Virus record (IMG/VR): IMGVR_UViG_2778261463_000018
Length of the DNA stretch: 6,829 nucleotides
Reading direction: 5' to 3' (one strand)
From: a virus
Lineage: Duplodnaviria; Heunggongvirae; Uroviricota; Caudoviricetes
In this document: one piece after another, positions 1 to 5,606 of the stretch
Position numbering within the stretch: the first letter of the stretch is position 1
Layout of the letters: every line of letters starts with the position of its first letter
The notes under the pieces: model-generated
The model's database searches: none
Told to the model about the DNA's origin: nothing
The model's input: only the letters and a program-made list of their open reading frames with translations
Translations under genes and position numbers: made by a program

Positions 1-1230
1 ATGCGCAGAGCACTTAACAAACTGAGCGATACACAGCTAAGGAAAATCAACGGCACACCCGCCCAAAAAACAGCCTTTCTTAATGACGGTGGAAACCTGA
101 CCGTCAGGCATTCAACCAGCGGCCTTTTAACCTGGTATTTCACTTACAGGGCCGGAACGGGAAGGGGCGCACCACCGGAACGCATTAAGCTGGGAAATTA
201 TCCTGATCTGAGCCTGAAATCAGCCAGGGAAAAAGCCGCCCAGTGTCGCGCATGGCTGGCTGAGGGGAAAAATCCACGTCATGAGATGAATTACACCGTA
301 CAGGAAGCGTTAAAGCCTGTAACGGTTGGCGATGCGCTCACCTACTGGCTTGAGTCGTACGCAAAGGAAAACCGTGTGGATTATGACCCACTGAAAAAGC
401 GGCTAAATAATCACGTAATACAGCACATTGGCCCTATGCCGCTGGATAAATGCGAGCTACGGCACTGGCTGGCCTGTTTTGATCGGGTGGCAAAGCAAGC
501 CCCTGTTTCCGCCGGGTTCCTGCTACAGACATGCAAACAGGCGCTTAAGTTCTGCCGGAAGCGGCGCTATGCAATCAGCAACGTTCTTGATGATATGAGT
601 GTGGCTGACGTTGGGAAAAAACCGGATATAAGTCAGCGTGTCTTAAGTAACAAAGAACTTGGCGAATTATTGCAGGCACTGGACAAAAAAATATTTTCCC
701 CTTACTACGTCGCGTTAATCCGCCTCCTGATTGTTTTCGGATGCCGGACAGTAGAACTGAGGTTATCGGAGATCGGCGAGTGGGATTTTACCGAAATGCT
801 CTGGACCGTTCCGAAGGAGCACAGCAAAACGAAGGTAGCCATATTCCGGCCCATACCGGAAGCGATACTGCCGTTCGTCACGCAGCTGGTGGAGCAGAAC
901 AGGCACACGGACTTATTGCTGGGGGAAGTGAAACAGGAAACCAGCGTGTCGCAGTACGGCAGATTAGTGCACAGGAGGCTTAAACACCCTCACTGGTCAC
1001 TGCATGACATCCGGCGCACCTTTACAACGATGCTGAACGATTTAGGCGTGGATCCTCACGTCGTGGAGCAGCTTACAGGCCACCAGATGCCAGGAATGCA
1101 GCGAGTTTATAATCATTCCCGTTATCTGGATGCGAAACGCAATGCGCTGGATATGTGGGTGGAGCGGTTGGAGATACTGGCGGGAGCACATGAAAACGTA
1201 ACCACGCTACCAGTAGCCAGAAGAAAATAA
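1..1230 (+). CDS. int: Tyrosine site-specific integrase, P4/CP4-57 IntA-like (409 aa; start at window edge, may extend upstream)
   Basis: Long ORF ending TAA 1228-1230. N-terminal LSDTQLRKI...GGNLTVRHSTSG...YFTYR region typical of P4-family integrase N-terminal domains; C-terminal catalytic signature LHDIRRTF (H-x-x-R) and LTGHQ...VYNHSRY (catalytic Tyr region). Confidence 0.9.
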   Translation: MRRALNKLSDTQLRKINGTPAQKTAFLNDGGNLTVRHSTSGLLTWYFTYRAGTGRGAPPERIKLGNYPDLSLKSAREKAAQCRAWLAEGKNPRHEMNYTVQEALKPVTVGDALTYWLESYAKENRVDYDPLKKRLNNHVIQHIGPMPLDKCELRHWLACFDRVAKQAPVSAGFLLQTCKQALKFCRKRRYAISNVLDDMSVADVGKKPDISQRVLSNKELGELLQALDKKIFSPYYVALIRLLIVFGCRTVELRLSEIGEWDFTEMLWTVPKEHSKTKVAIFRPIPEAILPFVTQLVEQNRHTDLLLGEVKQETSVSQYGRLVHRRLKHPHWSLHDIRRTFTTMLNDLGVDPHVVEQLTGHQMPGMQRVYNHSRYLDAKRNALDMWVERLEILAGAHENVTTLPVARRK

Positions 1231-1263: not shown

Positions 1264-1286
1264 GATAAGTGCACAGATACAACGGC

Positions 1287-1322
1287 GAACAATGTGAAAC
1301 AACGTGGAACAACCACGAACAA
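1287..1322. repeat. Four direct GAACAA (one GAAACAA) repeats with exact 10-bp phasing
   Basis: GAACAA at 1287, AACAA at 1298, GAACAA at 1307 and 1317; one helical turn apart, typical of arrayed sites for a DNA-bending or recombination-directionality protein. Confidence 0.4.
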
Positions 1323-1417
1323 GAGGCGAAAAAGTATACAGACTTATAAGTTGCTGATTTTTAATGCTCAACTGGTTTTTTATACATTAGCGAATAACGC
1401 TTTAAATAGTGAGAAAA

Positions 1418-1444
1418 AAGGCATAAAACGAGATTTTATGCCTT
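1418..1444. promoter_or_regulatory. Perfect inverted repeat AAGGCATAAAA-cgaga-TTTTATGCCTT (11-bp arms, 5-nt spacer)
   Basis: Read directly. Preceded on + strand by GAGAAAAA, so on the minus strand the hairpin is followed by a U-tract; could be an operator or a minus-strand terminator. Confidence 0.35.
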
Positions 1445-1514
1445 TGCATAACACTGAATTAAAATGTTTTTTATTAAAATCACCCCGTTTCTGTAAAATG
1501 CCCGCCACCAACAT

Positions 1515-1543
1515 TTGCCAACTCTGAATCACCCTGACACAAT
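1515..1543 (+). promoter_or_regulatory. Candidate sigma70 promoter for alpA (TTGCCA-N17-CACAAT with TG at -15/-14)
   Basis: -35 TTGCCA 1515-1520, 17-bp spacer, -10 CACAAT 1538-1543 preceded by TGa (extended -10 like); about 55 nt upstream of the alpA start. Hexamer match is moderate. Confidence 0.25.
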
Positions 1544-1604
1544 CAGACACATACCAACGCAATAGAACACGAAATAACTCTTTAAGAAACGAAAGGGGGC
1601 AATA

Positions 1605-1793
1605 GTGTTAAGCACTGATCGGTTTATACGTGAAAAAGAATGCGAAAAGCTAACAGGCCTTAGCCGCTCATGCCGCTACCGCCTGGAAAAGGCCGGACAA
1701 TTCCCATCACGGCGTAAGCTGGGCGGTCGTTCCGTTGGCTGGTCTTTATCCGAAGTTCTGGCATGGAAGGAAAGCTGCGAGGCAGTTCACTAA
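1605..1793 (+). CDS. alpA: AlpA-family (phage Vis/AlpA-type) HTH transcriptional regulator / excision regulator, 62 aa, GTG start
   Basis: GTG start at 1605 with strong SD AAAGGGGG 1592-1599; sequence CEKLTGLSRSCRYRLEKAGQFPSRRKLGGRSVGWSLSEVLAWKESC fits the AlpA/Vis signature (tGlSrstiyr...FP...lg.r.vgW...ev..W); located directly downstream of int. Confidence 0.85.
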   Translation: MLSTDRFIREKECEKLTGLSRSCRYRLEKAGQFPSRRKLGGRSVGWSLSEVLAWKESCEAVH

Positions 1794-3915: not shown

Positions 3916-4203
3916 ATGAAACTTAAATATTCTGGCTTAACTGCCAGTGGCAAAACTCGCACTAAATTCATGCGCGGCGATATTTACCGCGATAAGTACG
4001 GCGGCACGGTCATGATTAAGGGCGTGGAGGAACGTCGCATCACTTACCGCCGTGATGGCTACGAATATGACTGCGTGATGCCTGTTTATCAGTTCCGGCG
4101 TGATTTCACGCTGGTGGGCCATCGTAAAGCCGTTAATCAGAAACGTGCAGCAATCTATATCCGCAAAATCCGTGAAATGCTGGTCGCAGGGGGTAAAAAA
4201 TGA
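3916..4203 (+). CDS. Hypothetical basic protein, 95 aa (R/K-rich, possibly nucleic-acid binding)
   Basis: ATG 3916; stop TGA 4201-4203 overlaps the ATPase start (ATGA coupling); high Arg/Lys/Tyr content. Confidence 0.55.
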   Translation: MKLKYSGLTASGKTRTKFMRGDIYRDKYGGTVMIKGVEERRITYRRDGYEYDCVMPVYQFRRDFTLVGHRKAVNQKRAAIYIRKIREMLVAGGKK

Positions 4204-5606
4204 AACTGGCACCGAACGTAAAACTGTTACCGAAAAATAAACACACTGAGGCGGTTATTTTTGCGGGTGATAATGCTCACTCCTTTGCAGAACATTACAT
4301 GATTGCACAGGCCAAAAAAGCAGGCGATCCCATCCCTCCGGTTTACCTGGGCCGTTATCAGTTAAGCGAACTGGACAACTTACAGATTGTTGATGAAGGA
4401 CGATACAGGGCAAAGGTCATACGCGCCGGAAACCTGGACGATATGCAGATGCTGACCATTGCCACAAAACTGGCGATCGCCGGAGTCCTGGAGGCGCGGC
4501 TACTTTCTGAAAATTTCGAACTGCTGGAGGACTGGAGCGACCAGCTACCACGACTACGGGAAACATGGGAGAGAGGGGAAAGCCTGGTCATGAATGGCGG
4601 AAAGCGAAAAATCACACTTCCCATCTCATGGGGTTCTGAGGGATTCGATGCGCAGCAAAGCTACGTCATTAAGGGGCTTATTCCGGCTGAGTCATTATGC
4701 AGCACCTACGGGGCCAGCGGTTCTTATAAATCGTTCCTCGCCATTTCCTGGTCGTGCCATGTTGCCACAGGTATGGCATGGGGAGGCCGCAGGGTAAGTA
4801 AGGGTGCGGTTATCTATATCGCTGGCGAAGGCAGCATGGGCGTAAAACGCCGCGTTAAGGCGTGGGAGATAACCCACGAAAAAATGGTTACAGATTTGTG
4901 CATCATTAACGCGCCGGTATTCCCCGCATCGCCTGACTATGTGGAGCAGGTTATCAGGACTGCCGGACTTGTTAAGAGCAGAACGGGCGAAAATGTGCGG
5001 CTGATTGTGATCGACACGCTGGCCCGTTGCTTTGGTGGGAATGATGAAAATGATTCCCGTGATATGGGCGCATTTATCCAGGGGTGTGACGCGATAAAGC
5101 AGGCTACAGGGGCCACGGTGCTGGTGGTTCACCATTCCGGCAAGGATGAAACAAAGGGGGCGCGTGGTTCCAGCGCATTCCGTGCCGCGCTTGATGCAGA
5201 GTACCGAATCAGCCGGGAAAATTCAGACGTTACAGCACTGGTGGCGGCGTGTACGAAGATGAAAGACGCAGAGGAGCCAAAAGAGAGCGCATACGACCTT
5301 AAAAGCGTGGAGGTGTTTACCGATACCGATGGCGAAGAGATTGTGTCCATGGTGGTGATTGACGTTCCCCGCGCCCCTGCTGAACTGGAGCGCATAGAGG
5401 AGGCAGGCAACAAGACGGAAAACCATACCGCGCTATGGGGGTGCATCCGTTCACGCACACAGAACGGCGACAAGTGCACGATCCCGCTGTTACGTGATGA
5501 CATGAAACGGCTTGGGTATGACGTGAAAAATATGCGGCGATGGTTAGCCAAACTGGAAAAAGACGCCGTGATTTACATTGATGGTGATGATGTAGGACCA
5601 CTGTAA
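4200..5606 (+). CDS. P-loop NTPase of the RecA-like/AAA_25 (RepA/DnaB-type replicative helicase) family, 468 aa; putative island replication protein
   Basis: P-loop-like YGASGSYKS (4707-4733), Walker B-like RLIVIDTLARCF, and VLVVHHSGKD...GARGSSAF motifs characteristic of RepA/DnaB-like helicases; SD AGGGGG; immediately followed by an iteron array. Confidence 0.75.
   Translation: MKLAPNVKLLPKNKHTEAVIFAGDNAHSFAEHYMIAQAKKAGDPIPPVYLGRYQLSELDNLQIVDEGRYRAKVIRAGNLDDMQMLTIATKLAIAGVLEARLLSENFELLEDWSDQLPRLRETWERGESLVMNGGKRKITLPISWGSEGFDAQQSYVIKGLIPAESLCSTYGASGSYKSFLAISWSCHVATGMAWGGRRVSKGAVIYIAGEGSMGVKRRVKAWEITHEKMVTDLCIINAPVFPASPDYVEQVIRTAGLVKSRTGENVRLIVIDTLARCFGGNDENDSRDMGAFIQGCDAIKQATGATVLVVHHSGKDETKGARGSSAFRAALDAEYRISRENSDVTALVAACTKMKDAEEPKESAYDLKSVEVFTDTDGEEIVSMVVIDVPRAPAELERIEEAGNKTENHTALWGCIRSRTQNGDKCTIPLLRDDMKRLGYDVKNMRRWLAKLEKDAVIYIDGDDVGPL

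Follow-up and report, generated by a model that had tools for sequence, protein, structure and literature searches.

A 10-bp-phased array between int and alpA of an EcCICFT073-type island and its possible role as a set of AlpA boxes

In Gram-negative phage-inducible chromosomal islands (PICIs), among them EcCICFT073 and the capsid-forming EcCIEDL933, induction proceeds through alpA. No description of AlpA sites in a PICI was found in the searchable literature, and none of cis elements at an alpA promoter in the literature searched. The DNA analyzed here, IMG/VR record IMGVR_UViG_2778261463_000018 (Caudoviricetes; its full 6,829 nucleotides are called the window), starts at the ATG of an integrase gene, int, and by its sequence is the left end of an EcCICFT073-type PICI. 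A sequence-only reading had noticed short repeats one helical turn apart between int (1-1230) and alpA (1605-1793), and this location was borne out by Pfam profile matches to both genes.

The phased array in the int-alpA spacer

The spacer was read and contained GAACAA exactly at 1287-1292, 1307-1312 and 1317-1322. Four copies of this hexamer had been claimed; the second array unit is in fact AAACAA at 1297-1302, and it had been placed at "1297/1298" because G1296 precedes it. The spacing itself held, as the period of the array is exactly 10 bp, and a scan with a position weight matrix (PWM) lengthened the array by a fifth in-phase unit, ATACAA at 1277-1282. Over the array the window reads ...cagATACAAcggcGAACAAtgtGAAACAAcgtgGAACAAccacGAACAAgagg..., and the units and the A-run that follows them are:

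1275-1324, plus strand: distal phased array of five 10-bp units, AGATACAACG, GCGAACAATG, TGAAACAACG, TGGAACAACC and ACGAACAAGA
1326-1333, plus strand: conserved A-run GCGAAAAAG, in phase with the array; A129, A130 and A132 are invariant in alignment A1 (10 sequences)

The A-run could represent an A-tract or a sixth unit that has degenerated. The distal units have the core (G/A/C)A(A/C)CAA and read TTGTTCG / TTGTTCC / TTGTTTC / TTGTTCG / TTGTATC on the minus strand. A conserved preference for G or A was seen two bases upstream of the ACAA core, and the G+C content of the array itself was ~40%.

The hexamer GAACAA as such occurred in the window about as often as expected (5 against 4.8). Matches to the phased pattern GAACAANNNNGAACAA with at most one mismatch numbered three against an expectation of 0.05, a count that none of 200 shuffles reached, and Tandem Repeats Finder reported a period-10 array at 1288-1313. 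The array region is non-coding: RefSeq has no coding sequence there in the copies examined, and the mechanical open reading frames (ORFs) that run over it (1252-1527 on the plus strand, 1122-1322 and 1207-1371 on the minus strand) are disrupted by 10- and 11-bp indels among relatives. No RNA structure was predicted for the array on either strand (z-scores of -0.9 and +0.5), and a search of region 1150-1900 against Rfam gave zero matches at E<=1.

Just upstream of the array, at 1249-1264, lies a perfect 16-bp palindrome, CAGTATGCGCATACTG, which is confined to the subgroup of the window's type. The EcCICFT073-type subgroup has at this place a sequence that is 11 bp shorter and non-palindromic.

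Conservation of the array in related islands

Loci with an int 3' end, a spacer and alpA numbered 75 (66 IMG/VR contigs plus E. coli and Shigella loci) and yielded 57 distinct spacers of the window's family, the divergent locus L017 being excluded. The array was kept in all 57, with five to seven units in a constant 10-bp register. A 10-sequence alignment and the 57 spacers show little or no variation in the ACAA cores, in contrast to the 4-bp spacers between them and to the flanks, which vary. The sequence-only reading had proposed such a search and had named an array that is lost while its flanks are conserved as the outcome that would speak against it; the opposite was found. At the level of the sequence, cores that are kept among spacers that drift are the signature of a binding site. 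The copy number shifts by whole 10-bp units, and L059 has exactly one extra unit, on the side far from the promoter.

The sequence TTTGCCA, which holds the -35 element of the predicted alpA promoter (see below), was invariant in 57/57 spacers. It lies 195-199 bp from the last distal core in 54 of these and 207 bp from it in two; in L009 the last unit is degenerate. The lengths of the spacers (1231-1604 in the window, and the 57 relatives) cluster at 353, 364, 374 and 384 bp, with indels of 10-11 bp at various places. These indels look as if the helical phase between the elements were preserved.

The same units in both attachment-site arms

The strongest clue to what binds the array is that its units recur, in inverted orientation, in both att arms. 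There two motif classes stand side by side, the units with their 10-bp period and a pair with a 12-bp period, GGTGTAGTCA. The att arms of the window's own element lie outside the window. In the island of E. coli strain Ch1, the plus strand upstream of int reads cTTGTTCCAgcTTGTTTCAcgTTGTAgccctTTGTGCAA, with more TGTTYCA-like units every 10 bp towards the core, and in this P' arm GGTGTAGTCACTGGTGTAGTCACT directly follows the TGTTYCA-like units. At the other end of the island cTTGTGCCtatTTGTTCCAcgTTGTTTCA is followed by GGTGTAGTTAATGGTGTAGTCAAT and, ~70 bp further on, by the core repeat ATAACAGCA. The 18-mer TTGTTCCACGTTGTTTCA is identical in the attR arm and on the minus strand of the window at 1297-1314.

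A position-weight scan of the whole Ch1 island found phased clusters at three places only, namely the int-alpA spacer, the P' arm and the P arm. Over 18 kb of EcCICFT073, clusters of at least three ACAA cores at exactly 10 bp were likewise restricted to three places, with six plus-strand units in the spacer and with four and three minus-strand units in the P' arm and the P arm, respectively. Under a first-order Markov model 0.006 such clusters are expected per 18 kb, and three were reached in none of 1000 simulations. The islands are integrated at at least four chromosomal sites (tqsA, roxA/phoQ, yifB/ilvG and abgR), and conservation of the P' arm module extends to islands from each of these four. 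The closest relative with an upstream flank (L019, 95% identical) also carries the arm units.

The sequence-only reading had held the array unlikely to consist of att arm sites. This is right for the position of the distal array, which lies ~1.4 kb from the core and beyond int, outside the ~200 bp around the core in which arm-type sites are expected, but it overlooked the inverted units in both arms.

The motif of the integrase and the motif of its partner

The spacer is bounded by two genes, whose products are rival candidates for the binder of the units:

1-1230, plus strand: int, a P4-type tyrosine integrase (PF13356 and PF00589) with an Arm-DNA-bind_3 N-terminal domain
1605-1793, plus strand: alpA, 62 aa, PF05930 (E 5e-18), proposed binder of the units

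By its sequence, the 12-bp-period pair GGTGTAGTCA looks like the arm-type site of the integrase. It is similar to TGKTGGTATC, the published arm consensus of IntS from ICEMlSymR7A (PMC11963761). In 30 loci the pair covaries with the variant of the Int N-terminus, the ACAA units remaining constant: ...KPAEKNTFYSDGGNLSVKYLTSGKL occurs with GTGTAGTCACT and ...TPAQKTAFLNDGGNLSVRHSTSGLL with GTGTAGTTAAT, and the Int N-terminal variant of L017 goes with GTGTGGTCAGT. The variants thus go with the GGTGTAGT(C/T)A pair and do not track the ACAA units. In L086, whose Int N-terminus is 29% identical and whose AlpA is 64% identical, the pair is replaced by two copies of TGGTCCAAA and CTGTTTCAgaCTGTTTCGtg is kept alongside. 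The units are identical across the two Int N-terminal variants that differ in the pair and persist with the distant N-terminus of L086, a pattern that does not suit integrase sites, with the caveats of linkage and of a single distant case that are taken up below. Unit variants in L084, L088 and L017 come with changes in both Int and AlpA. The pair motif, searched as GTGTRGTYA, had four one-mismatch matches in the window where 4.5 were expected; none of them fell in the spacer, so that the int-alpA array has no adjoining arm-type pair.

A comparison of L001 and L007 showed the EcCICFT073-type Int N-terminal variant together with the pair GGTGTAGTTAAT and the Ch1-type variant together with the pair GGTGTAGTCACT. 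In lambda attP (L093, 181-224, which we take to be the region of the Xis sites X1 and X2) GTTGT occurs as in the island units and TGTAGTC as in the GGTGTAGTCA pair; these matches are short and may be coincidental.

AlpA as the candidate binder

AlpA was modeled with AlphaFold2 (pLDDT 87) and showed a helix-helix-strand-strand-helix order. The best fold matches were the GIsul2 excisionase 8c3t (TM 0.83), which AlpA also matches by sequence, then RdfS, and further TorI, Pukovnik Xis and BldC-DNA. According to this model, AlpA is an excisionase-type winged helix. Since the window is of the EcCICFT073 type, the published genetics of EcCICFT073 can be applied to its spacer family. In that island, pBAD-alpA activates a PalpA reporter, and over-expression of AlpA leads to Int-dependent excision and to replication (PMC6092414). 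The EcCICFT073 spacer, on whose promoter region AlpA acts, carries the array.

The locus has the make-up of a box array for a recombination directionality factor (RDF): the units are set at 10 bp, boxes adjoin arm-type sites in the att arms of Ch1 and EcCICFT073, and the element encodes a small winged-helix protein of RDF type, AlpA. From the sequence, the model and the analogy, we regard the ACAA units with moderate confidence as candidate AlpA sites. The balance of the evidence tips modestly towards the array being an operator of AlpA boxes, cooperatively bound by AlpA, whose task would be excision at the arms and, upstream of alpA, autoregulation. A cooperative binder of the excisionase, Vis or AlpA type on one face of the helix, as suggested by the sequence-only reading, is therefore the best-supported explanation in view of the AlpA fold and of phased RDF boxes elsewhere; that AlpA is this protein, that it binds cooperatively and that it activates the promoter from a distance is what we infer. 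It is well known in principle that one RDF can have several functions and phased boxes both at att sites and at promoters, and AlpA boxes of PICIs would be another instance of this.

The alpA promoter region and a possible mechanism

Between the distal array and alpA the following elements were found:

1340-1500, no strand assigned: AT-rich tract (27-36% G+C) of nearly fixed length between the distal array and the promoter
1417-1445, plus strand: conserved hairpin with a 12-bp stem, AAGGCATAAAA-cgaga-TTTTATGCCTT (-16.5 kcal/mol, z -5.7)
1515-1543, plus strand: predicted sigma-70 alpA promoter, -35 TTGCCA at 1515-1520, 17-bp spacer and TG-extended -10 CACAAT at 1538-1543
1535-1571, plus strand: weaker proximal array, GACACAAtca GACACATacc AACGCAAtag AACACGA (GACACAAtcaGACACATaccAACGCAAtagAACACGA), with a PWM match at 1535

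The site at 1515-1543 (TTGCCA-17-TGnCACAAT) was the sole promoter-like site that the promoter scan returned in 1150-1900. The scan gave no promoter immediately downstream of the array, where the hexamers are also poor by eye. The proximal array has the same orientation as the distal one and overlaps the predicted -10 and the start region of alpA. Relatives retain CACAA or GAACAA units here, even those that have lost 10 bp; in variants whose 10-bp deletion directly follows the -35, AACAAT from the next unit takes the place of the -10.

The variants of the hairpin form a series of A-U, G.U and G-C pairs, of which G.U is tolerated only in the RNA of the plus strand. On the minus strand the hairpin is followed by T6, and no convincing minus-strand promoter was seen for an antisense RNA that would end at it. 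From its sequence, the hairpin is probably the terminator of int or a (bidirectional) insulator; most likely it terminates int transcripts, which would put the distal array into the 3' untranslated region of int. A match to the integration host factor (IHF) consensus with two mismatches was noticed by eye near 1390-1410.

In the mechanism that we propose, AlpA protomers would bind the units (core TTGTTC/GAACAA) head-to-tail, one per helical turn, and form a short nucleoprotein filament. At the att arms the filament would bend the DNA beside the Int arm sites and so promote excision, AlpA acting as an RDF. In front of alpA, the distal filament might cooperate with the proximal units at -10/+1 over the spacer of fixed length and increase transcription, either by bending or looping of the AT-rich DNA or by relieving its silencing. 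Such positive autoregulation could turn a small burst of AlpA, triggered by the helper phage, into an all-or-none switch with a sharp threshold. The elements thus defined are a conserved array of five to seven units, the proximal units that accompany it at the promoter, and its counterparts in the two att arms. They bear on the coupling of excision and transcription by AlpA, on the cooperativity of the switch and on the entry of the helper signal at the boxes, and the array can serve as a simple signature by which att arms and regulatory regions of this island family are annotated.

Several observations weigh against this proposal. A distance of ~195 bp and a terminator-like hairpin separate the distal array from the predicted -35 downstream of it, which makes it an unusual place for an activator, and the proximal units over the -10 would more naturally repress. 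No effect of AlpA on Pint was found by Fillol-Salom et al., although boxes of the P' arm lie upstream of int. As to the earlier suggestion that the array may control alpA or int, simple promoter-proximal control is unlikely because of the distance and the hairpin. The covariation of pair and Int N-terminus may be mere linkage, as the pair and the codons are 20-40 bp apart, and L086 is a single natural swap whose two units could be due to chance. TorI, whose sites resemble the units, shares 26% identity with AlpA over 42 aa and is not a PF05930 protein, so that the kinship is remote. A search for AlpA homologues gave 19 proteins, four of them with useful genomic contexts, and a scan of genome contigs with AlpA gave at least three loci. 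Islands with a 61-71% identical AlpA (L017, L074-80, L084 and L088) have no int-alpA array. By this sequence comparison the int-alpA array is lineage-specific and no general requirement for AlpA autoregulation.

L017, despite having no int-alpA array, carries TTGTT units in its P' arm. Before alpA, a hairpin whose 3' half holds the Shine-Dalgarno sequence, and which would sequester the ribosome-binding site, is present in L017 (2878-2967), L084 (3948-4000) and L088 (2385-2477), and L017 and L088 have in addition two GTGATATCAC palindromes there. As far as its sequence tells, the upstream layout of alpA in these three islands follows a different control logic, without a phased array.

Alternative explanations

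The units might be the arm-type sites of Int, bound by its Arm-DNA-bind_3 domain, with the GGTGTAGTCA pair as the RDF site; the spacer copy would then let Int repress or insulate alpA, or would titrate Int. Like arm-type sites the units stand on both att arms, lambda P'1-P'3 are contiguous 10-bp direct repeats, the Int N-terminal domains are 55-100% identical among islands with TTGTT-type units, and a repressor could well act from the proximal units over the -10. We nevertheless consider this assignment improbable, given that TGTTTC units persist and the pair changes where the Int N-terminus has diverged (L086), that two Int variants follow two pair variants with constant units, that it is the pair that resembles the published IntS arm consensus (PMC11963761), that AlpA alone activates PalpA in trans (PMC6092414) and that the array is farther from the core than any known intasome reaches. 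A similarly low probability is given to the array being a sensor of the helper phage, at which an early phage DNA-binding protein fires alpA. The favorite for this protein is the Xis of the helper (lambda, phi80 or Kapi1), and AlpA may share the sites later. Helper phages induce alpA from a plasmid-borne promoter fragment, and their inducer has been stated to be unidentified (PMC6092414); alpA of EcCIMP1 is still partly induced without AlpA, and Kapi1 Xis is reported to be identical to TorI (PMC11773190), whose sites are GTTCG at a 10-bp period. Phased cox-boxes are also the means by which an RDF, P2 Cox, switches on the satellite P4 (PMC3936717), and lambda X1 contains GTTGT, like the units. 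The case is nonetheless purely circumstantial: the excisionases of lambda, phi80, HK106 and Kapi1 are dissimilar, EcCIMP1 is described as distant from EcCICFT073, the resemblance to lambda Xis sites amounts to one pentamer, and boxes at the island's own att arms favor a binder that the island encodes. The combined version, in which helper Xis, made right after prophage induction, would give the first burst of AlpA and AlpA would then take the same boxes for positive feedback and those of the arms for excision, as a mirror image of P2 Cox acting on P4, seems to us equally doubtful. If it were true, the array would be the helper-phage sensor of Gram-negative PICIs, and excisionase cross-talk a general induction signal for this satellite family.

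A host factor or the shape of the DNA, that is static curvature, a host response regulator of the winged-helix type, or H-NS, Fis or IHF with silencing of the AT-rich DNA upstream of alpA, would be compatible with the low G+C content of the spacer (27-36%). A unit of the P' arm such as TTGTTCATTAT (L001, 12760-12790) resembles CTGTTCATAT, the TorR box of the torCAD promoter; TorI first came to light as an inhibitor of TorR. P4-like alpA genes are reported to be controlled by H-NS and Hha (cited in PMC7379572). The array itself is less AT-rich than its surroundings, and its specific ACAA core and upstream G/A are conserved beyond mere A/T richness. The position of the units beside arm-type sites at both arms points to the recombination machinery, and the sites change with the island lineage (TTGTTCG here, TGGTTCG in L084, GTTCAT in L088), which is unexpected for a host factor; we hold this explanation to be very improbable. 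Least credible of all is an RNA element in the int 3' untranslated region (a platform for Hfq, ProQ or CsrA, or a small RNA) or a set of replication iterons. With the int stop codon before it and the terminator-like hairpin after it, the array is probably transcribed together with int, and iterons are likewise tandem direct repeats. An RNA element was rejected on account of the zero Rfam matches and the failure of the array to fold, and the opposite orientation of the units in the att arms also speaks against it. As for iterons, these are usually 17-22 bp long compared with 10 bp here, PICI origins are described as adjoining pri-rep, the gene for a RepA-type helicase (4200-5606) is 2.9 kb away, and sister arrays at the att arms have no origin logic.

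Comparison with known systems

The proposed AlpA boxes have a close parallel in the cox-boxes of P2, of which at least six with a spacing of 10-11 bp are found at attP, at Pc and upstream of P4 PLL (PMC3936717). Cox too is a small excisionase and regulator that binds with one protomer per turn, has boxes at att and at promoters in a target-dependent orientation, and controls a satellite (PMC3936717). It differs in its protein family and its box (TTAAAG/CNCA) and in being a product of the helper, AlpA being one of the satellite itself; moreover, Cox binding has been demonstrated, while the AlpA boxes are candidates.

TorI, a winged-helix RDF of an E. coli element, has the sites I1-I5 in KplE1 attL (GTTCG/GATCG/GTCCG, three of them separated by 2 nt), which resemble TTGTTCG, share the 10-bp period and adjoin the Int arm-type sites between the core and int, with a regulatory effect on a promoter (PMC2951348). 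The TorI query sequence used by us agrees with PDB 1z4h. In contrast to AlpA, TorI represses int, and the accessible part of that report describes no third array upstream of torI (PMC2951348). RdfS of ICEMlSymR7A is a further winged-helix RDF, which binds attP directly upstream of an Int arm site as well as promoters including its own, with one site ~170 bp upstream of rdfG; a homologue activates a promoter from ~170 bp upstream together with a proximal site, and filament oligomers are formed (PMC11963761). RdfS has no definable consensus motif, negative autoregulation and an extra N-terminal helix, whereas the AlpA units have a clear core.

BldC of Streptomyces, a MerR-like winged helix of ~68 aa without a dimerization domain, regulates transcription and binds variable numbers of direct repeats head-to-tail in filaments with one DNA turn per protomer (PMC5859096). 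It differs as a chromosomal developmental regulator with the motif AATTxxxxC and no role in recombination. The binding modes of BldC and RdfS are both described as being like that of lambda Xis (PMC5859096, PMC11963761). On X1-X1.5-X2, lambda Xis places winged-helix protomers head-to-tail about one turn apart beside an Int arm site; unlike the islands, lambda has three such sites in one arm only. We know of no promoter array of Xis sites that regulates xis. Vis of P4 is an AlpA-like satellite protein that binds between int and the attP core as an excision factor and also regulates late promoters. It is also mentioned in PMC6092414, and P4 differs from PICIs in gene content and organization.

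The AlpA antiterminator of Pseudomonas aeruginosa was considered and dismissed, as it shares only the name: it is a larger protein with a helix-turn-helix at ~128-142 (PMC9371919), compared with 62 aa and PF05930 here. A module of this AlpA/Q type was likewise rejected for the alpA promoter, as the AlpA-binding element (ABE) GGGACG is absent from the 17 bp between -35 and -10 (1521-1537) and the predicted promoter has the hairpin on its upstream side, whereas that module has a terminator downstream.

The island and its other features

Of 5426 complete E. coli genomes, 878-889 carried a homologous segment from the int 3' end to alpA, with identities of 80-99%, and a search of the phage collection gave zero DNA matches to the window. 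The complete island copy in E. coli strain Ch1 is ~11.6 kb long and has the gene order int, alpA, a divergent YlcI/YnfO gene, an icd-like gene, DUF4222, a RepA helicase, SSB, PerC, and homologues of a major capsid and a decoration protein. EcCICFT073 is located beside roxA in CFT073, and its gene order and spacer family match the element in the window; the protein accessions of its Int and AlpA are identical to those of L007 and L014. The assignment of the window to the left end of an EcCICFT073-type PICI is based on these sequence features, namely co-oriented int and alpA at the left end, a replication module (DUF4222 with a primase or a RepA helicase), SSB, PerC and capsid and decoration homologues, and on a length of ~11-12 kb between direct repeats in the full copies, Ch1 and EcCICFT073. 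A capsid-forming PICI had been considered and was dropped, as the capsid and decoration homologues (c1499, c1500) fit the published description of EcCICFT073.

The Int of the window is a mosaic. Its N-terminal arm-binding domain (1-285, residues 1-95) is 96% identical to that of EcCICFT073-type Int and 79% identical to that of the Ch1 copy, though Ch1 is otherwise its closest full-length relative. Directly after the alpA stop codon, the minus strand has a G+C-rich hairpin followed by a T-run (1797-1820), which looks like a terminator for leftward transcripts of the divergent YlcI/YnfO-type gene (2370-2543), not for alpA. Further downstream, a mechanical ORF of 341 aa (1846-2871) is probably not a gene as such and marks a variable accessory slot after alpA; in RefSeq, relatives have frameshifted or partial pseudogene fragments there, or other genes (BRO-N, antirepressor or hypothetical).

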